A stretch of 63,546 nt of DNA, filler included, from 13 parts of 13 records of this genome joined end to end with filler, not necessarily neighbours in it; one strand, 5' to 3'; numbered from the whole stretch's first letter, positions 2,301-49,071 are shown. Numbers and translations are program-made. The notes: generated from the sequence alone by a model not told the origin.

Positions 2301-3671
2301 CTAATGATCACCGCGACGGCCGCGTGCACCGCGTATACGGCCGCGTGCACCGCGTGCACGTTCGGGTGGCGCGCGAGGTTGGTTCGCGTTCAGCCCTGCT
2401 TGGCGTGTAGCTCGCAGTTCAAACCCGCTATACGAAACACAGCTGGCATGCGACCGGCCCGTCAGCAAGTTTGGCCCGTACTCCCACTCGTTCTTCTCGC
2501 AATCGAATATCTCAATTGTCTTGTGCCGCTGGAGCGCGGTGCCGTTCTCTGCATCAAAGCACTGCCCACCGACCACATACACGGCCCCGTTGTGCCAGAC
2601 CGCAGACGCGGCCGACCGAGGCACGTGCATCGGCGCCATCGCGAACCAGCAGTCGGCCTGAGGGTCGAATATCTCAACCGATCTAAAATAGAGATGCTCC
2701 TCATCACCCGTTGGATCGTGTCCGCCCGCCACTAACAGCTTATCTGTGGGCGTGGCAGCCACCGACGGATACGCCCGGGCCTGCTGCATCGGCGGTATCT
2801 CTTGCCAGCAGCCGGCAACGCAGTCCCACCGCTCCACGCTGTTGTGCACTGTATCAAACGACTCTGAGCCTCCGACCACGTACACGCTGTCCCCTAGCAC
2901 GGCGGCAGCGCAGCGGGCTCGCCGGCCACTCAGCTCGGGCCCGGCCTCCCAGTCTCTGCAAACTGGGTCGAACACCTCCACAGACTGCAGCGCGTTCAGG
3001 CAAGGCTTGGTCTGAGAGTAGCCTGCCCCCCCCCCCCTTCGGCCCTGGGCTAGCAGTCATGAGGCACCTCCAATCATCCACAGCTTATTTTGAAACACCA
3101 CGCCAGCTGCGCACCGACCGACCATCATCGGCGGAAGCTGCTCCCACCGGCCGGTCGCGGCCTGGTAGCGCAGCCCATCCGCGAAGATTGCAGCCCCGTC
3201 AGTCCCACCCAGCACGTACAAATCCCCTCCAAACACAAGCCCCACGCCAAGCGAGCGCGGCCGGCCCATCTGAGGGGCAACCCGCCACTGGCCGGCCATG
3301 AGCACCTCGGCGTCGTCCAGCCGCTGGCTGTCGCTCCTGCCGCCGATGCAGACCACCGGCCGGAACCGATCGATCAGACTCTCCACTTCCACTAGCGCGA
3401 CGGTGGCCTCCGGGCAGACCCCGTAGTCATGCCAGCTCAGGTCCGAGTCGAGCACCGACTCGGCGAAGACGAGCACGAGCTGGTCAGCATAGGCCAGCGG
3501 GAGTTGGACCATCGGGGCCAGGCGGTGCTTGAGCTCGCCCACCTTGGCCGAGAGGTGGACCTGCAGATCGAGCGCCTGGCCGGTCGACTCGACCAGCACT
3601 GTGAGCGGCACCTGCTCCTCGCCCGGCTCCAGCACCACGTCGCCCTTTCCTGTCCGCATGCACTGTCCCAT
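2301..3671 (-). CDS. Ubiquitin-like domain + Kelch-repeat protein (intron 3023-3067)
   Basis: UBL-like LTVLVEST..ALDLQVHLSAKVGELKHRL..LVFAESVL...DYGV; six Kelch blades (YVLGG, YVVGG, VE.FDP..W). Removing GT..AG 3023-3067 joins the two ORFs in frame. Confidence 0.8.
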
Positions 3672-3761
3672 TGCTTTCTCAGCTGCCGGCCGTCGTGAGC
3701 TCGAGCGGGGCCGTTGATTCCGGATTGATTCGCAGCGGCCACGCCACGCTGTGCCTCCTCG

Positions 3762-4392
3762 ATGCTGCAGGCGGTTTTGCTCACAGTGCATACTCCAAGG
3801 GGGTGGGGCAGGTGGAATCGCCGCCGGTCGACGCCCGCGACATCGGTCGGAACAACGGCCCAGCTCTGCTCGACTCGCCGCCCTCCAGGCGCCGGCTGGC
3901 TGGCGGGCAGCGACGAGCTGTGGGGGCAGTCCGTCCAGCGGCGGGATCCTTTACAACAAGTGGAAGCAGCGCTGCCTGTTCGGGCTGCTGCACAATGACG
4001 CGAATCTAGTCAAAGAGGGGCTCAGCGTGGAGGCGCTCCCCCCGAATGGGGCGCGGCCAGCGGGGAAGCAGGGGGCCGAAGTGAGCCTTTATCTGGAGCA
4101 GGAGGAGCCGGATATCTGCCTGGACGGGAACAGCAGCAGCAGTCCGACCTCTGGTCGGGTCGGGTTCTTTCCAAAGTACATTCTGACCGAGGGCGCCGGC
4201 CAAACCATGCTGCACTACGCCGCAGCGCATGATTACCCCGAGGTGTGCCAAGTGCTGCTCGATGCAGGCAGCCGAGCGAGCCAGGGCCGGCCTGAGGGCC
4301 GGGCAGGGGCCGAGCCAAGCACCAAGTCCCGGCAGGGCCAGACGGCGGTTGAGGTGGCCCAGGGCGCGTGTGTGTCGCTGTTGAGCAAGTGA
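3762..4392 (+). CDS. Small ankyrin-repeat protein (start uncertain; GC-AG intron 4268-4306)
   Basis: GQTMLHYAAAHDYPEVCQVLLDAG; removing 4268-4306 gives LLDAGAEPSTKSRQGQTAVEVA, a canonical ankyrin junction. Confidence 0.65.
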
Positions 4393-6222: not shown

Positions 6223-7620
6223 CTATTGTTTGCACAGTCCCATGTTGGCCAGCGCGTCTGAACAGCAGCGCGACGGGCAGAGCGGGAAGCTAGGAGATGG
6301 CACGCTACTGCTGCCATTGGCGGTTGCGGTGGCCTCCCACTCAACTCCGGTCTGCTCATCGTGCCCGTGGGCTAAGAAGGCCTCGAAGGCAGCCCATTCT
6401 GTGTCCCCCTCCAACGCCGTGGCAAACCGCTGCAAGATCTTGAGCCCAGCTGCCTGCTGGGTGAGCCGTGGCAGCGAAGTGCAGATGTCGTAGCTACACG
6501 CCCCCTCGACTGGAGTGGCCCAGAAACAGTGGTTGGCCTCCTTAATCACAACGAGTGCCTTCTTCTTGGAGCGCAGTTTGCGAAAGGTATCGATCCCGCG
6601 AAGGGGCATCGTTGGGTCGTTGATACAGTCATTGGCGCCCACGATGACAACTGTAGGCGTGTCCACTTTAGTAGCATCCGCATTTGGATTGCCGTACAAC
6701 CCTGGGGCAAACAGGGCCAAGCCACCAACAGCTCCGCCAATTGCAGGCGCTGCAAGAACAGAGGTGCCGCCGCCCATTGAGTGTCCAGCGAGCAGCGTGC
6801 GACCTGTGAGCCGACCACGCAGAGCCTCGAGCTTTGGCAGCGCTGTCACTAGCACTGCAGCGTCGCGTGCAAGCGGACTCAGCAACGGCGGCTGCACAGC
6901 CGGATCCTCTAGAGTTGTGTCAATGATGGCGACCACGAAATTCTGCCCGTCCACCCCCCCTGCAAGCTGCCTGCAGAGATAATCGTAATCCTCGCCGGCC
7001 ACCCTCCAGCCGTGACTGTAGATGAGCAGCGGTGACTGGAGCTTCTGGTCCGACGGCAGGCATACGGTCGCATTGACCATCCGTGAGGACGAGTCCGGTA
7101 CGCTCACAGTGAGCTTGCTGGGTGGTGGCTGGCCGTTCACGTCGTCCTTCACTCCACCCCCCGAGTAGACGCGGAGCGACTTGATCTTGGCGTCTGGTGT
7201 GAAGGACCACAGGTTGATGTTGTCGAGCACCGTCGGCGTGCCGTCAACCAGCGCGCCCTCGAAGTGCAGCGGGGTCGAGGCGGTCAGACCAGTCGGGTCC
7301 ATCACTACCTGCACCGCGCGTGCCGACCGCCGAGAGAATGCAGGGATCAGCTGGGCGTAGAACTGTTCGAGTGCCGCCCGGCCGGAGACGACCCCGCCCT
7401 GGATCTTCATGGCCGGGAACGGTGGGTAGGTGCCGGTCGCGTCCTCCGCAAAAAGTGCCGCAAGGGCAGTGGCGTTCCCGATGGAGAACAGGTAGAAGTA
7501 GGAGTCGATCAGGTCCCGGTTGCGGGTGGCCAGTGCGCTGTCGGCCGGGCAGGTGCCATCTGCGAGCGCGGTGAGCGCGGCGACCCCCAGCAGCCACCCG
7601 ACCCGAACAGCCCAGCGCAT
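6223..7620 (-). CDS. Secreted SnoaL/NTF2-like domain + alpha/beta hydrolase (chlorophyllase/cutinase-like) fusion
   Basis: Signal peptide MRWAVRVGWLLGVAALTALA; SnoaL-like ALAALFAEDA...GRAALEQFY...FTPDAKIKSLRVY; hydrolase YSHG, nucleophile elbow GHSMGGG, GAND and ANH. Confidence 0.75.
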   Translation of the reverse strand: MRWAVRVGWLLGVAALTALADGTCPADSALATRNRDLIDSYFYLFSIGNATALAALFAEDATGTYPPFPAMKIQGGVVSGRAALEQFYAQLIPAFSRRSARAVQVVMDPTGLTASTPLHFEGALVDGTPTVLDNINLWSFTPDAKIKSLRVYSGGGVKDDVNGQPPPSKLTVSVPDSSSRMVNATVCLPSDQKLQSPLLIYSHGWRVAGEDYDYLCRQLAGGVDGQNFVVAIIDTTLEDPAVQPPLLSPLARDAAVLVTALPKLEALRGRLTGRTLLAGHSMGGGTSVLAAPAIGGAVGGLALFAPGLYGNPNADATKVDTPTVVIVGANDCINDPTMPLRGIDTFRKLRSKKKALVVIKEANHCFWATPVEGACSYDICTSLPRLTQQAAGLKILQRFATALEGDTEWAAFEAFLAHGHDEQTGVEWEATATANGSSSVPSPSFPLCPSRCCSDALANMGLCKQ

Positions 7621-7674
7621 GTCACACCAGCGCTCTGGGCGGCCGGCGGAGCCGTTGCAGGGCCATCCATCCTC

Positions 7675-10174
7675 ATGGTGTCTCATCAGGTTGGATGGAT
7701 TCTGGTGCTCCTCTCACTCTCTGGAGCGGCCGCGTCTGTGGCGCTGACCGCCATCCCGCTGCCCATGTCAGCAGTGAGCCTGTACGGCGACTGGGCCGAG
7801 AGCCAGGCCCGGGACCGCGAGGTGCTGATGGGCATCAATGCCACAGCGCTCACCTGCCACTTCACGAGCACCAGCAACCTCACCAGCTGCTCCCCGGACC
7901 AGGCGGCCTGGCAGACGTACGAGAAGAACGCGACCGGCGGCTGGGGCCCGGTGATGGCCGGCTACCTCCAGCAGGGCAGCGACTGGCAGCCCCCGCAGAA
8001 CGCCAGCTTCGCCAGCTGCCTCGGCCTGTGCGCCACCAATGCTTCCTGCGTGGCCGTGACATTTGAGAGCGACTCGCCGGTGCCCACCGGGGACGTGCTG
8101 TGCTACCGCAAGACGGCGGCGCACTTTACGCCTTACAAAAGCAACTGCGTGGCGGCGGGGGGCACGGGCAAGCCGGTGTGCGCGCCCCTCCCAGGAGAGA
8201 TGGGGCTGGGTGGGTATTTTGGGCACTACCAAGGGCACTGGCTGTCGGCCACAGCGTTTCTGATTGCCAGCACCGGTAACCAGACTATCAAGGACAGGGC
8301 GGATGCGGTGATTCAGACCTACGCCGACGTGATGGAGAGCTGGAAGAGCAAATATGGATATGATGGCTACATGTTCCCGTACGATCCCCTGGTCTTCGAC
8401 AAGCTTTTGGCCGGGCACGGGGCGGGGCCTTACTACACGGTGCCGTTCTACACGCTGCACAAGCTGATGGCTGGATTGCTCGATCAATACGAGCATGCAG
8501 GCTCGTCGCTCGCTTTCGATCTGGTCAAGCGGATGGCTGGCTGGGTGCACACCGTGGTGGAGCGGACGATCGCCACGGGCGGTCAGGATCTGTGGCAGCG
8601 GGTGCTGCTCACCGAATGGGGCGGCATGAACGATGTGCTCTTCAACCTCTACAGCCACACGAATGATCCGATCCACCTCGCCACTGGGCGCAGGTTTAAT
8701 GGCTGGGTGTTCTCGCAGCCTCTGGCCGACGGGGTGGATAACCTCGGCGATCTGCCTTTCCCGCATGCCAATTTCCACCTTCCAGAGGTTGTCGGGTTTG
8801 CTCGAGCGTACGAGCTTTCCGGGAATGAGACCGACAAAGCAATTGCTGATAACTTTTACAACGAAATGTGGGCCAATCACTCTTACTCGACTGGAGGTTC
8901 TAACTCCGGCGAGTGCTGGCAGCGCCCGCGCGACCTGGGCGCCTTTCTGAGCACGCAGACTGAGGAGTCGTGCACACAGTAAGCCGAATTGGGCTGCGTG
9001 GCTCTAACTGAGGGCAGGTACAACATGCTCAAGGTGGCCAGGCGGCTTTTCCAGCGGGCTGCCGACCCCCAGCTCGCCGACTTTTACGAGCGGTGAGGCT
9101 CGGCCAGAGCCTGGACTGAGCCAATGGCCAGTGCGATTTGGAACGGTATCATTGGCAATCAGAACCGACAGGACCCCCACATGACGTCTTACATCTATGT
9201 GAGCTAGCTTTGGGCTAGAGCTTGCTCACATTGCGGCAGATGCTCCCTCTAGGCGGAGTGGTCACCAAGCAGTGGGGCAAGAGCGACTACGGCTTCCCGT
9301 GCTGCTGGGGTGACGCAGCTGGGCAGCATGGGGCGAGCTAGGCTGGGCCAGGCACGCTCTCTGAGAGCTTCGCAAAGCTCGGGGACTCTATCTACTTCAT
9401 TTCACCGGCGCAGGATACGCTATATGTCAACATGTTTGTCTCGTCAGAGGTAATCCCCCAGCCTGCAGCCCGGCTGAGCGGCCACAGGTGGCTATGGAGC
9501 AGCTTGGCGTCGTGGTGCAGCAGCAGGCGGGCTTCCCTGCCTCGCCCAACTCAACCACCGAACTCACAGTGACCGTGCTTCCGACGCCGTCCCCGGCCCC
9601 AGCGCCACCGCGGGCCGTGCAGTTCACAATGGCCATCCGCGTGCCTGGCTGGCTCACTCAAGCCGGATCAGTCCGAGTAAACGGGCAAGAGGCGGGCGGA
9701 GCTCTGAAGGCTGGCTCTTACCTCCAGCTCAACCGGACCTGGCGCCACAACGACAAGGTGACCGTGCACTTTCCGCTCTCGCTCTGGACAGCCCCGCTCA
9801 ACGACTACCACCCGGACTACAACGGCACCATGTCGTTCATGTACGGGCCGCTGGTGCTCGCAGGCGTGGACATGCAGAGCGACATATGGGTGCCGAAAGG
9901 CAATCAGTTCAAGAGCGATCCGAGCAGCTTCATCAGGCGAAATTCGACCAGCGTGCTCGAGTTTGAGGCAACAGCCGCTGATGGCAGCCTGATACGAATG
10001 ATTCCGTTGCGGGATGTGATGGAGGAGCAGTATGTTGCGTATTTCATGACTGCAGGCTCCAAGCCGGCACAGCCGCCGGTTTACTACTGCCCACATAGTC
10101 ACAACGAAGAGGCAAGCGGCCACGGGATGGACTGGCACGTGAAGGACGGAGTGCACGCTTGGAAGCACCACTAG
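7675..10174 (+). CDS. Secreted GH127/GH146-type beta-L-arabinofuranosidase-like glycoside hydrolase, 6 exons (introns 8979-9017, 9093-9131, 9199-9239, 9310-9351, 9450-9487)
   Basis: GHYQGHWLSA, YTLHKLMAGLLD, EWGGMND, HANFHLP and YGPLVLAG; splicing restores ESCTQYNMLK, DFYERAIWNGI and CCWGTLSESFAKLGDSIYF. Confidence 0.9.
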
Positions 10175-37377: not shown

Positions 37378-39339
37378 TCCCTTCATTGGGTCCTTCTGCT
37401 TCTTGGCTCCCGCCTTGAGGATCTCATCCACCAGCAACAGCTGGTTTGCAATCACAGGTGCCGAAGCCAGCATGTGCCGCTTTGAGATGTAAGTGTCCAG
37501 AATGCCGTTTGCGACTGGATCTAAGACCTCGCCCGAATTAACGTCAAATCCCACAGGGACCTCCGGATGAGCCCGGACCTGCCACACAGTCGGCCCGAGC
37601 CTGAGGCCTTGCTCACCTGCTCCTGCAGCTTGATGATAGAGTCCTGCACGTCGTACCCAGAGTTCTCGGAGATCGCCTTGGGAATTACCAGCATCGCTTC
37701 GGCGAACGACTGCACGCCCAGCTTGGCCCGGCCCTGCAGCACCGCTGGTCAAGAGTGCCTGGTGGCCCGGGGCACCTCGGCTTTATCCAGGTTGTCCAAT
37801 AGGTACTTTGAGCAGCCGACCTCGAACGAGCCGGCCCCGGCCACCACTGTGCCGTGTTCTATCGTGTTTTTGACCGTGCGCAGCCCGTCCTTGATCGCAC
37901 TGTTCACCAGAGAGATGGTGTAGTTGTTCGGACCACGGACCAGGATCGTGCACGCATGTGGGTTCTTGACCTTCTCGAGGAAGGTGTACTTCTCGTCCCC
38001 GAGCTGGGTCTCGTACAGCAGCCCGGCCTCGCCCAGGCAGTCTGCGTTGAGGTCCTTGTACGAGTTCACACAGGTGGCTCCGCAGATCAAGTTGAGCCGC
38101 TCCATGTTCCTGCGCTTGGCCCGCCGGAGCGCCATGATGCCCTCCCGCGCAAACATGTCGAGCGAGAGCGGGTCGATCCCGAGCAGATTGATCACCACAA
38201 AGTTCTTGTCAGTCCCCTCACACACCTGCTGCCCGATGAGTGGCGCGCCCGGCCGTGTTGCGCGCCTTCTTCTTGAGCGCTATCACGTGCTCGACGCAGG
38301 TGTTGACCACTTGCCGCTCGGCCTGGATCTGGCTCTCGCGCTGATCGGCTGTGTTGTAGTACCAGGCCGAGTTGACCTCGCTGCGCACACACCGCTCAGC
38401 AAGTCGGTGAGGGCGGCACGCACGTCTTCTCATACTCCATCTCCAGACTGCAGGTGAAGATGAACGCGTTCTCCACGCGGGTGGGCATGTCCGGATGCCG
38501 CGGGCCGTGGTCGAGCACCAGCCCCCGCACCAGCTTGGTGTCAATCCCTAGTCGGTGCTTGAGCGCTTGCATCTCAACCATGTGAGCGTCAATCGGGATG
38601 CCCTCTTGCCGGATCGTCAAGATCGCGTCGACCACGATGTCTGTCAGCAGGTTGCACAGCTCCGGCGAAACCTGCACCGGCCAGCTCGCCCGGCAGCGGC
38701 GGGTGGCAGCAGACCTTGGTCTGCAGTGTTGTCCTTGCCACCGACAGGAGCAGCTCTCTGTCTTCGCAGTCGCGCTCCATCTTCACCTGATCGAGGTACT
38801 CGAGCGCCAGCGCCTTGGCCACGTCGAAGCCGTCGGCGATCAGCCGCGGGTGCACCCCCTCGGTCAGGTAGCGCTGGGCCTGCTTGAGGAGCTCCCCGAT
38901 AAAGACCACGCACGAGGAGGTCCCGTCGCCCACCACGTCGTCCTGGGCCACCGCGGCCCGGCTAATCAGCTGCGCTGTCGGGTGCTGGATTTGCTGCCCC
39001 GCGGATGAGGCACGGTCGGGGCAGGGGCGATACCATCGAGGCCAGCAGGTGGCTCCCATCCTTGGTGAGCGTGATCTCGCCCGCACCGTCGACCAGCCTG
39101 CCCGAACGCCTCAACGATACTGGACCGGCCGCCGGGCGATTACATCTTCATGGTGCCGGTCGGCCCGATGTTGGATCGCATCACGCTGGCAAGCCCCTGG
39201 GCTGCCGCGCTATTGATTGCGAGTGCCTGTCCCTTGTTGGTGACAGCATCCGCGTTCGGGTTGACCATCTGGCCGTGCAACACACGCGCGTCAGAATTCC
39301 ACGCGCCTGCCAGCCCCCCACCTGCAGAGCGGACTTCAT
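37378..39339 (-). CDS. CCT6: T-complex protein 1 subunit zeta, 9 exons; stop lost at contig edge
   Basis: Spliced [64 protein letters not shown] and QLLLVDEI. Confidence 0.95.
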
Positions 39340-45656: not shown

Positions 45657-45792
45657 TGCCGTTGTCGGTGTGATTGCCGTGAAGGGAGTACTNNNNNNNN
45701 NNNNNNNNNNNNNNNNNNNNNNNNNNNNNNNNNNNNTTAATTAATTAANNNNNNNNNNNNNNNNNNNNNNNNNNNNNNNNNNNNNNNNNNNN

Positions 45793-48700
45793 CATCATAG
45801 GCAGTCCTCTGATTGTGTGCACACAAGTTCAACGTCCTGGAGAGGGACGGCAGGGTAACAGACGACCGTAGGCTGCCACTTAGTAACAAGTTAGAGTTGT
45901 CTCCGGAGAGCGAGTTGCCGTTCACACAGCCAAGAATGCTGGAGGGACAGCTTACTTCTAGCTGATGTGGCGAATGAAGCGGCAACGATACCGCTGGGTG
46001 CCTATCGATGACTTGTACTGGGGTCTGAACTTGTGCCTGCGGTGGAACTGTGTGGTGCGAAAGCATCAACGCAGTGGTGAATGCTGCCATCAGCCCTGAT
46101 GCAGATACAGTATGTCCAAACACCGCCTTGTGCCCAGATAATATCAGGGGGGTCGGGCGGCCGGGCAGACAGAGGACTTGTAGGACCTGCCATGCCAAAG
46201 TCAGAGTCAGGGACAAATATCACTCACCGCTCGGACTTCGGGGATATCTGCAGCTGGATTCCCCACTGAGTGCAGATGGGCGACTGAAACTTGATCGACT
46301 GCCATGCCCATGGCACGTTCAGCGACACTGGAAATAGTTGTCTCGCAGGGTACTCCAGAAGGCAGTCTGGCGGTTGTGCGACTATTAGCCCAACCAACAA
46401 GACCTGCATAGCACTGCACTGGATCAGCGCATACTTCCAATACAACCGCTCCACAACCTTCTCCCATGATCATGCCGTCTGCAGAGACATCCAACGGACG
46501 CAGATTACCGCTGCGCGAGAGCATGCCTGCCTGGAGCAGGTGTGCCTGCAGGTCAGCATTGATGCTGAGCCCGGCCCCACCAACCACACAGCCACTGGCT
46601 TTGGAGTCACGTAGCGTTTGTGCAGCTTGACAAAGCGCTAGATAACCCGAAGCACAGGTTACGTCGTAGTTCCCATGTGGACCAAACAAGTTGAGCCTAT
46701 TCGCAAGCCACCATGAAATTTTCCAAGAAGACATCCGCATCAACATGCGTTCAGGCTCTATGGCCGAAAACAACGCCCAGTCTTCTTTGCATTGCGCAGA
46801 CGCAGCGTCGAGAAGTGCTTCCTCCATGAGGCTGCCTGTGAACCGCAGGTGATAATCAGTTTGCTCTCGACCATGATGCATCTTCATGTCAGCCAGGCAA
46901 ATGAACCCCCCCGGAGGACAGTGTCGCATGCGTGCATTCACACATGCACGCGCCCAACGCGTAGGCAAGTTGGTACGCCTGAAAGTGACCCAACCACTCA
47001 AAACAGCGTGCCAAAGCTGTGCAACACTCGAGACCTCTCCAGGCAATCTGCAACTCATCCCAGTGACGGCTATTTCAGTGGGCCAATCAGTAGTGTGTTG
47101 TGCCATCGGTAGTACTGGCACGTGCATAGGGCTACTCCCAGCGGCATAGACGAGGTACATGTCTCTACACGCTGGATCTGGCTCAATCGCAGTAAGAACA
47201 CAGTAAGCCTCAATGAGGTCCTTCACCTCGGCCAAACGGCGGTCGCCCTGCACCTCTACAACCAGGTTACGTACCAGTGGCCAATGGCGCGGCTCGATCC
47301 CTCGGAGCACGTCCAACTCAGCCCTCTCAACATCGACCTTTAAAAGGTCAATACACCGCAGCTTGTACTCGTCAATCACAGATGACAACGTCCGTAGTGC
47401 ACACTGAACAGTCTCAGGCTCGAGCACTCGTGTAGCCAGTGCCCGCTGCTTTGCGGCATCCCGGCCAGGGTGCATGAAAGCATCGTACTGCCTAAATGTC
47501 TCCAAATCAGACTCTCGATCGGCATATCGCCCAGAGAGAACTGAAAGCCCGGGGTAAAAGATGAACTCTGCCCGGTCTGCTGCCTCTGCAAGTCCGCAGT
47601 TGTGATGCACCCCAGCCACCTGATAGCTCTCGCGATTCTTTGTGGACACAGCGTAAATGGCAGGAATGGGCTCAAACGAGTGCACCACCACATTACTTGC
47701 TAGCCCGGAGGCAAAAACTGAGAAGAGACCCTGATTGGCCCCCACGTCGAACACAACTCCGCCATCAGGAACCGAGGCGCCGTGCTGCAGGTAGCACCTG
47801 CGTCGGAAAATCTCCTCGAAAGTGTACTCCACCTCGCTCGGATGGTTCAGATAAAAGAAGCTGAGCGGGCAATCATGCACGCGATGAAGATTCTGCGCCC
47901 CCGGTTGAGGCCTGCTTTGTATCACAAGTGTCTCACACACGCGTTCGAAACCAGGGTTGAGTTCGGCAGCGGTTGGCAGCAAGTTCTCATCGGTAGGGGC
48001 ACAGAGATCGGGCTGTAAAGCTGCTTGAAGATGCTCTGCAAGCAGCCGCGGGGTGTCATAGTTGTACAGCGCAGTGATTCCCACCTCCGTTCCCAGCTCC
48101 GAGCCTAGCTCCTCAGCTGCACTGATCAGGTCGAAAGAATCCATCCCAAGCTGGGCAAAGCTAGTCTCCGGCCACCAGCTGCGCCCCTCAGTAATCTCGT
48201 CTAGCACCTTACTCACTGCAAGCATCGTGTCGCGCGGCGTGTGCGCCGGTGTGATCGAATTGCCAGACGGATCGAGCTGATACTGCACCAGCGCGCCGAT
48301 CCCTGCATTTTGCACGTCCTCAGGTCGGTATCCCATCACCAGCTGGTGAAAAATGGCGCCGCGTGCGGTGTGGAACTGAATCCCAGGGTCGCCCGACGCG
48401 ATGTGCCGGTGCATCGCAGCAGCCACGTCCTCGCACGCACCGCACTCAAACGCCCTGCAGCGTGTCACTGCAGCAATTGTCTGGATCTCACACTGGCGGG
48501 CTGCGCTGAAGGCATGGTCTAGCAGCAGGCTGCCTGCACCAGCCGGCAGGCCTGGAGCCACTTGAATCCCCACCAGCTGGAGCACAGCTCCGTCATGCCG
48601 CTGCAGCGACCCCAACCCAGCGTACTGTGCCGCCGCGAGCAGCTCCAGCGACCCCACGCGCTGGGTGTACAGGCAACCGACCAGCCCGGCCGGGCCCACC

Positions 48701-48919
48701 AGCCCGAACTGCCACCCGGGGCTGCGCTGGACCCGGCCGAGCAGCACCGGGCCCGGCTGGCGCATCCTGACCGGCCAGGCCAGCTCCAGCTGCTCCAGCC
48801 GCTCGGCCAAGTTGGCATCGGACATGTCCTGCCGCAGCGCCCCCAGCGTGCGCACCTCGAGCGCAGGACTGGTCGGGCCAGTGTTCCCCTCAACGTTCGA
48901 TGCTGGCGTGTGCTTAGAA
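45793..48919 (-). CDS. Type I polyketide synthase fragment: GNAT-like decarboxylase, ACP, FkbM methyltransferase, ketosynthase; intron 46187-46227; open at both contig ends
   Basis: GNAT AVTRCR, QFHTARGA, YRPEDVQNAGIG; ACP LGMDSFDL; FkbM FDVGANQGLF, FEPIP, IDLLKVDVERAE; KS IAVTGMSCRLPG, DVTCASG, DGMIMGEGCG, GHKAVFGHT. Confidence 0.9.
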
Positions 48920-49071
48920 NNNNNNNNNNNNNNNNNNNNNNNNNNNNNNNNNNNNNNNNNNNNTTAATTAATTAANNNNNNNNNNNNNNNNNNNNNNNNN
49001 NNNNNNNNNNNNNNNNNNNGGGGGGGGGGGGGGGGGGGGGGGGGCAGGGCGTTGCGGTTCCTAAATTCAAG

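Follow-up and report, generated by a model that had tools for sequence, protein, structure and literature searches.

In the pathways to curacin, saxitoxin and gephyronic acid, GNAT-like domains of polyketide synthases (PKSs) remove the carboxyl group from malonyl-, methylmalonyl- and dimethylmalonyl-acyl carrier protein (ACP) and lack acyl transfer activity (10.1101/2025.03.07.642089). The lyngbyapeptin start (LynB1/LynB2) combines a methyltransferase lid-GNAT-ACP-ketosynthase (KS)-acyltransferase (AT) arrangement with a separate O-methyltransferase-ACP and delivers a 3-methoxy-2-butenoyl unit (PMC10127204). The FkbM proteins of MIBiG comprise 4 shown and 25 likely O-methyltransferases and one N-methylating exception (PMC9259500), and a route from hydroxymalonyl-ACP to methoxymalonyl-ACP has been described (PMC3679948). 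Here we analysed a contig of 3,127 bases (GC 0.58) at positions 45793-48919 of a 63,546-nucleotide stretch of DNA, the window, made up of short contigs strung together with linkers. The contig carries part of a type I PKS gene, probably nuclear and probably from a telonemid, in which GNAT, ACP, FkbM and KS domains follow one another in one frame. The reading that we favour, at about even confidence, is a starter-making module in which GNAT and FkbM act on one carrier and give a decarboxylated, O-methylated starter that is accepted by the KS.

The contig is bounded by assembly linkers (45693-45792 and 48920-49019), and its coding sequence falls into an 897-codon stop-free minus-strand frame (P0001, 48918-46228) that begins at the contig edge and a second minus-strand frame of 131 codons (P0002) that runs from 46186 to the other edge (Table 1). 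A preliminary description of the contig had named the four domains in this order, in a frame open at both contig ends. Pfam, NCBIfam and phmmer matches confirmed the order, every motif quoted there is present, and P0001 and P0002 both reach the contig edges. The GNAT domain, which had been placed at 48810-48270, was borne out, with its start corrected, as the fold begins near 48858. Because no Met occurs before residue 32 in the linker ahead of GNAT, the gene likely starts further upstream.

Table 1 Features of the PKS contig, in window coordinates.
Feature	Position	Strand	Basis or remark
Entire contig; part of a PKS gene, open at either end	45793..48919	minus	frames without start or stop
Pro/Ser/Thr-rich linker ahead of GNAT	48859..48918	minus	first Met not before residue 32
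CurA/GphF-type GNAT-like decarboxylase domain (predicted)	48265..48858	minus	phmmer to 6mfc, 7ucl, 2ree
ACP, Ser261 in GMDS (48138-48136)	48013..48234	minus	PF00550
FkbM-family S-adenosylmethionine (SAM) methyltransferase, motif DVGANQG from 47748	47134..47886	minus	TIGR01444, PF05050
Diverged KS, exon 1 part; Cys755 (46656) in DVTCASG, His883 (46272) in HSVGN	46228..47082	minus	Pfam/NCBIfam
GT-AG intron, 41 nt, predicted	46187..46227	minus	splice signals, host intron sizes
KS exon 2 part; Lys (46129), second His (46114) in KAVFGH; NGNSLSGDN in place of SFG	45875..46186	minus	PF02801, E 7.8e-7
Post-KS linker running off the contig, 27 codons	45794..45874	minus	

The GNAT domain (residues about 21-218 of P0001) is, by sequence comparison, of the CurA/GphF type with the catalytic positions retained, and decarboxylase activity is predicted for it. 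A phmmer search of the PDB with the N-terminal 220 residues returned GphF (6mfc, E 8e-20), 7ucl and 7uci (1.4e-17) and CurA (2ree, 3.7e-17). The next match after these four stood at E 0.025, no ordinary acetyltransferase occurred below E 0.02, and P0001 had no Pfam acetyltransferase match; on these grounds we ruled out an ordinary N-acetyltransferase, which the preliminary description had named as the competing assignment. Alongside Trp48 (48777), the domain has Thr152 (48465), His183 (48372) and Arg198 (48327), the last three of which align with Thr140, His174 and Arg189 of the CurA chain, in agreement with the earlier claim that these positions are kept; Arg404 we take to be the counterpart of this conserved Arg. 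Thr140 and His174 are 34 residues apart, the same spacing as that of CurA Thr355 and His389, which are essential for decarboxylation (10.1101/2025.03.07.642089). P0001 fits 31 of the 38 columns conserved in at least 80% of other GNAT domains, including the invariant His, Arg, Asp, Asn and Tyr columns, and the catalytic His is present in all 43 of the 43 GNAT domains of the comparison set.

This gene thus shares with CurA (2ree/2ref) and GphF (6mfc/6mfd) the same domain (E 4e-17 to 8e-20), with Thr/Ser, His and Arg kept and an ACP directly after it, whereas it differs from them in the FkbM domain between ACP and KS, in its eukaryotic host and in its intron. SxtA, which we presume 7ucl and 7uci to represent, likewise has a GNAT decarboxylase, a methyltransferase and an ACP. 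In SxtA the methyltransferase is a C-methyltransferase and the last domain is of the aminotransferase type, giving the order methyltransferase-GNAT-ACP-aminotransferase; about 526 residues precede the GNAT in 7ucl. In contrast, the methyltransferase here is of the FkbM type and lies after the ACP, with the KS next; no match to a pyridoxal phosphate enzyme (Pfam/NCBIfam) and no sign of a saxitoxin pathway was found. A doubled SxtA-like starter without KS was seen in P0074 (Logan), which reads GNAT-ACP-winged helix-AprA MT2-like methyltransferase-GNAT-ACP. GNAT-bearing sxtA homologs have been reported in dinoflagellates (10.1101/211243), and a dinoflagellate GNAT of another kind has been described as an acetyl transferase (PMC8283056).

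The ACP sits directly after the GNAT domain and is well recognized (PF00550, E 1.2e-7, 32.3 bits against a cut-off of 20.8; custom ACP profile, E 4e-14). A 38-nt intron-like string at 48216-48179 (minus), which would end the protein just after GNAT if spliced, was considered and rejected, as the stretch reads as ACP helix 1 and the string is near chance level. The FkbM domain scored 79.7 bits with TIGR01444 (cut-off 37.7) and 44.9 with PF05050 (cut-off 22.7). Its model, built from a 44-row alignment (predicted local distance difference test, pLDDT, 95.4), indicates a class I SAM fold with an intact SAM motif; in structural comparison the FkbM protein 2py6 came out on top (Z 14.9, root-mean-square deviation 2.2, 168 aligned), tied with other class I methyltransferases, and Foldseek ranked 2py6 34th. 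The motif DVGANQG matches DVGx(N/H)xG, which characterizes type II Ser/Thr O-methyltransferases, KtzH among them (PMC8341866). This motif is common to the adenylation-embedded O-methyltransferases (KtzH, ColG) and the methoxymalonyl-ACP FkbM enzymes, and identity to adenylation-embedded bacterial FkbM domains is about 35-45%; the likeness to KtzH is one of motif and not of alignment. Unlike those domains, the one described here is not inside an adenylation domain and belongs to a separate, fully supported clade. From the family records (PMC9259500, PMC8341866), O-methylation by this domain is a fair guess, and so is the possibly O-methylated product claimed in the preliminary description.

In a tree that used 65 of 118 FkbM domains, the domain falls within a set of bacterial domains associated with carriers, most of which are embedded in adenylation domains. 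Within it, eight rows (this gene, P0006, P0013, P0015, P0105 and cluster members) form a clade with support 100 and a long branch, 51-72% identical over the query region. The FkbM domains of P0013, P0015, P0105 and P0155-P0157 are 51-54% identical to ours, and the clade is absent from the bacterial loci listed. One member of the P0013/P0015/P0105 group lies on a 127-kb contig. For P0015, a tail considered as an adenylation subdomain was not significant (E 0.06).

To place the domain order, we ran HMMER against 1.84 billion representative proteins, obtained 22,361 matches at E 0.001 and examined the best 150 (at least 159 bits); the domain map covered 157 proteins, namely these 150, 2 earlier matches, 3 cluster members, P0297 and this gene. 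The counts that follow refer to the best 150 of the 22,361 matches. GNAT-ACP-FkbM-KS was found in none of them. In 37 of the 42 other GNAT-bearing proteins GNAT, ACP and KS follow one another directly, which bears out the earlier statement that the order here is unusual, and in 19 of the 42 at least 430 residues lie upstream of GNAT. In most of the 102 FkbM-bearing proteins, FkbM is embedded in an adenylation domain or belongs to a loading region at the N terminus; an ACP followed by FkbM occurs in four others (P0058, P0131, P0147 and P0149), never with a KS after it. Three of these, P0131, P0147 and P0149, together with locus L078 show a small recurring architecture of bacterial type, KS-AT-ACP-FkbM with FkbM last. 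A 504-residue gap after the ACP of P0099 was considered as a methyltransferase and discarded, since it resembles ketoreductase regions instead. A protein with both domains at typical bacterial scores would be expected near the list cut-off, and intron-rich genes are poorly called in such protein libraries; the absence is fair and not strict evidence.

The sole other protein of the domain map with GNAT and FkbM together is P0006, of 344 amino acids and 60% identical, in which the two domains are joined by about 60-70 residues with no ACP match between them. It is sister to this gene in both trees (GNAT tree, 100/88; FkbM tree, 99). Because P0006 joins both domains without an ACP, the GNAT-FkbM pair appears to be a conserved unit, and the link suggests that both domains serve one carrier. 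The alignments of P0006 and P0105 stop abruptly in mid-domain; since this resembles read-through into an intron, we infer that both are eukaryotic. Taken together, the order is unique to this gene in the sets examined, and one relative shares the GNAT-FkbM pair. What is new is the combination and order; every part is a known domain, and GNAT starters are not new to eukaryotes.

GNAT starters are likely also present in other protist synthases, to judge from the sequences of P0078 and P0297. P0078, with GNAT, a weak ACP, KS, AT and reductive domains, falls in the GNAT clade on a long branch (97/85), and its KS clusters with the one from P0297 (98). Both carry SSFGYSGTIAH, which we take to be typical of protist PKSs. 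P0078 and P0297/P0298 are protist-like PKSs that begin GNAT-ACP-KS, and P0297/P0298 continues with a serine hydrolase domain of the FSH1 type. Protist-like rows form two separate groups in the GNAT tree, which is unrooted, and neither the direction of transfer nor a donor is readable from it. The possible bacterial origin raised in the preliminary description found no donor. A bacterial or viral source was tried and rejected, with a best FkbM identity of 45% among the 79 bacterial loci listed and 34% among 16 viral loci, and none of these loci has a GNAT domain. Two metagenome scans for relatives returned no locus, and the GNAT region, used as query in two word-index protein searches, drew 2 and 1 weak matches at a sensitivity low enough to miss P0006.

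Removal of the 41-nt intron brings the C-terminal half of the KS (PF02801) in frame. The intron (46227-46187) has a GTGAGT start, an internal CTGAC and a GCAG end, with the best donor of seven frame-restoring GT/GC-AG pairs. As claimed earlier, its size is typical of this genome, fitting six introns of a CCT6 gene in the window (40-46 nt) and the host introns of 42, 43 and 57 nt that RNA contigs of run X17 skip; splicing itself is predicted, as no RNA contig across the PKS intron was found in the four runs examined, out of 18 holding part of the stretch. The CCT6 (chaperonin zeta) gene lies at 37378-39160 (minus) and has short introns, including one GC-AG (38265-38226). Its largest exon has 16 matches at 79-99% identity, then at most 65%, among the best 120 of 695; Telonema subtile is one of the 16, and the 17-row clade has a Shimodaira-Hasegawa-like approximate likelihood ratio (SH-aLRT) support of 99. 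Because this exon, which lies on a different contig of the window, clusters with Telonema subtile, the host is likely telonemid, a placement made by one exon of one gene with few named outgroups.

In DNA run X1 the PKS contig is represented by three pieces at depth 3.6-3.8 and the host contig by pieces at 2.6-5.7 (one short repeat piece at 13.4), and RNA run X17 has both KS pieces and spliced host pieces. RNA runs X9 and X11 hold PKS pieces, but of the tested host contig no long near-identical piece, short or unlike ones only. At a depth of 2-4, the lack of cover over parts of the contig in the four runs, FkbM and the intron among them, carries no information. The intron, together with the pieces of both the PKS contig and a host contig in X1 and X17, makes it likely that the gene sits in the nuclear genome of a protist, and the earlier claim of a nuclear, non-contaminant gene is rated accordingly.

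In the starter-making module that we favour, a carboxylated acyl group would be loaded on the ACP by an AT encoded off the contig. FkbM would O-methylate an aliphatic hydroxyl of the carrier-bound group, GNAT would decarboxylate that ACP-bound group, and the KS cysteine would take the product and pass it on, possibly without elongation. The simplest chemistry would lead from hydroxymalonyl through methoxymalonyl to methoxyacetyl, the substrate being a guess.

Several points weigh against this proposal. The contig holds no gene start, no AT and no source of hydroxylated malonate, and a residue-rich linker without Met precedes GNAT, so the latter may be internal. P0006 is a single fragment. The FkbM domain had no PDB sequence match at E 1, and its clade has no characterised enzyme. 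No independent contig bridges any domain junction in the four runs. The ACP-FkbM and FkbM-KS links come from this one contig. The KS motifs DPQxR, HGTGT and SFG are gone (DYHLR, HSVGN and NGNSLSGDN stand instead), and GC content at third codon positions (GC3) falls along the gene from 0.79 in GNAT through 0.64 and 0.60 to 0.51 in the KS, with 0.85 in the CCT6 exon. Finally, of the 8 codons that vary in other runs, 4 alter the residue (p 0.24), a sample that does not separate selection from drift.

A first alternative is that GNAT-ACP makes a plain acetyl or propionyl starter, and that FkbM, merely housed in the linker, methylates the product of the first extension on the next carrier to methoxy-butenoyl or methoxy-butyryl, as in lyngbyapeptin. 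The lyngbyapeptin start uses the same domain set: in LynB1/LynB2 (also BarF and JamN), GNAT, ACP, KS and O-methyltransferase together give an O-methylated starter, as we propose here. Its O-methyltransferase, carried by a separate protein after KS-AT, has acetoacetyl-ACP as its substrate and is not termed FkbM, a term with 0 occurrences in the available text of PMC10127204. The arrangement of ACP then FkbM in 4 of the 102 FkbM-bearing proteins, three of them with FkbM at the protein end, also fits a methyltransferase that acts further on, whereas P0006 keeps GNAT beside FkbM and drops the ACP, and the KS here may not elongate. We consider this alternative possible, if doubtful.

The second alternative concerns the state of the KS, which was recognized by PF00109 (87.3 bits) and by PF02801 in P0002 (profile positions 339-426). 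Cys755, His883 and, in exon 2, Lys20 and His25 align to the KS profile, so that the Cys-His-His triad and the Lys are retained. The preliminary description was right that a KS is present and took it as ordinary, which it is not, being strongly diverged with three motifs lost; DPQxR, HGTGT and SFG are kept in 234, 250 and 236 of 267 comparison KS domains. Because the lost threonines and phenylalanine presumably serve extender binding, the KS may not elongate. Its best 8 matches among the 267 domains are at most 24-30% identical, and its end branch is 3.0, a length on which the KS tree placement is meaningless. A single-sequence model of the exon 1 part (pLDDT 34) has no bearing on the fold.

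It is conceivable, and on balance unlikely, that selection has been relaxed on the KS or on the 3' half as a whole, with GNAT and FkbM working and the KS a decaying or structural remnant of a shuffled PKS; such decay can coexist with the starter-making module. The lost motifs, the branch length, the absence of about 30 residues from the N-terminal half and the GC3 fall would all fit decay, as would an intron with 49% GC against 67-79% for the CCT6 introns and the lack of a close KS relative among the best 150 of the 22,361 protein matches. However, the frame is open over 285 codons in exon 1 (chance about 7e-6; the other five frames have 5-13 stops) and over the 131 codons of P0002, with Cys, His, Lys and His all in place. 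Signals of the intron are good, RNA-library contigs cover the KS as well as GNAT pieces, and two other long frames of the window have a GC3 of 0.57-0.59.

It is very unlikely that GNAT is internal in a giant synthase, where it would decarboxylate malonyl-ACP to give an acetyl donor or restart the chain in mid-assembly: the frame is indeed open upstream with linker-like sequence, and P0074 has a second, internal GNAT-ACP, but GNAT stands ahead of every detected KS, ACP, adenylation, condensation and AT domain in 42 of 42 other GNAT-bearing proteins, and it is normal for starter modules to be extended upstream by up to 531 residues. A chimeric contig, or one mis-binned from another organism, is the least credible of the alternatives, since the short contig, the GC3 gradient, the lack of a bridging contig and the absence of a long near-identical host piece from X9 and X11 are set against one frame over three junctions without a stop, the GNAT-FkbM link repeated in P0006, the X1 depths, the KS and spliced host pieces in X17, an intron size that fits the host and the absence of any bacterial locus above 45% identity among the 79 listed.

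Elsewhere in the window, all on the minus strand, one frame at 6226-7713 encodes a SnoaL-like domain and, after it, a PETase-like alpha/beta hydrolase (weak Pfam matches), a U-box domain is fused to DUF1232 at 1480-2181, and a weak ubiquitin-like domain precedes Kelch repeats at 2304-3950.

A GNAT plus FkbM polyketide module was not found in the literature searched, from which subscription journals were mostly absent; PMC7196800 and PMC9802089, in the text available, name the two terms separately. A search for a methoxyacetyl polyketide starter unit gave only work on extender units, and an unusual methylated start has been described in a fungal modular PKS (PMC13749307). Telonemia have been reported to rank second in type I PKS genes per genome and to express them (10.64898/2026.04.17.719054). 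That survey counts KS, AT and ACP by Pfam and, in its available text, describes no GNAT/FkbM module, although its supplementary Table S6 may list such genes; no described Telonemia PKS module or product was found in the literature searched.

A broader proposal, which we put forward tentatively and hold to be more doubtful than probable, is that telonemids and related uncultured protists built a starter module in which FkbM and GNAT act in turn on one carrier to give a methoxyacetyl-type starter, handed on by a non-elongating KS. Because the gene ends and a product are missing and the KS is worn, the value of the finding is limited. If the proposal is true, the starter chemistry would be one not found in the literature searched, and Telonemia would have its first defined biosynthetic module. 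GNAT-ACP-FkbM is a small, expressible three-domain unit with a testable reaction; should both enzymes share a carrier, an O-methylated starter would join the known acetyl, propionyl and isobutyryl set and could be useful for PKS engineering. For the organism, a methoxy end group would be predicted in telonemid polyketides, and the gene shows a reshuffling of bacterial-type starter domains inside protist genes.

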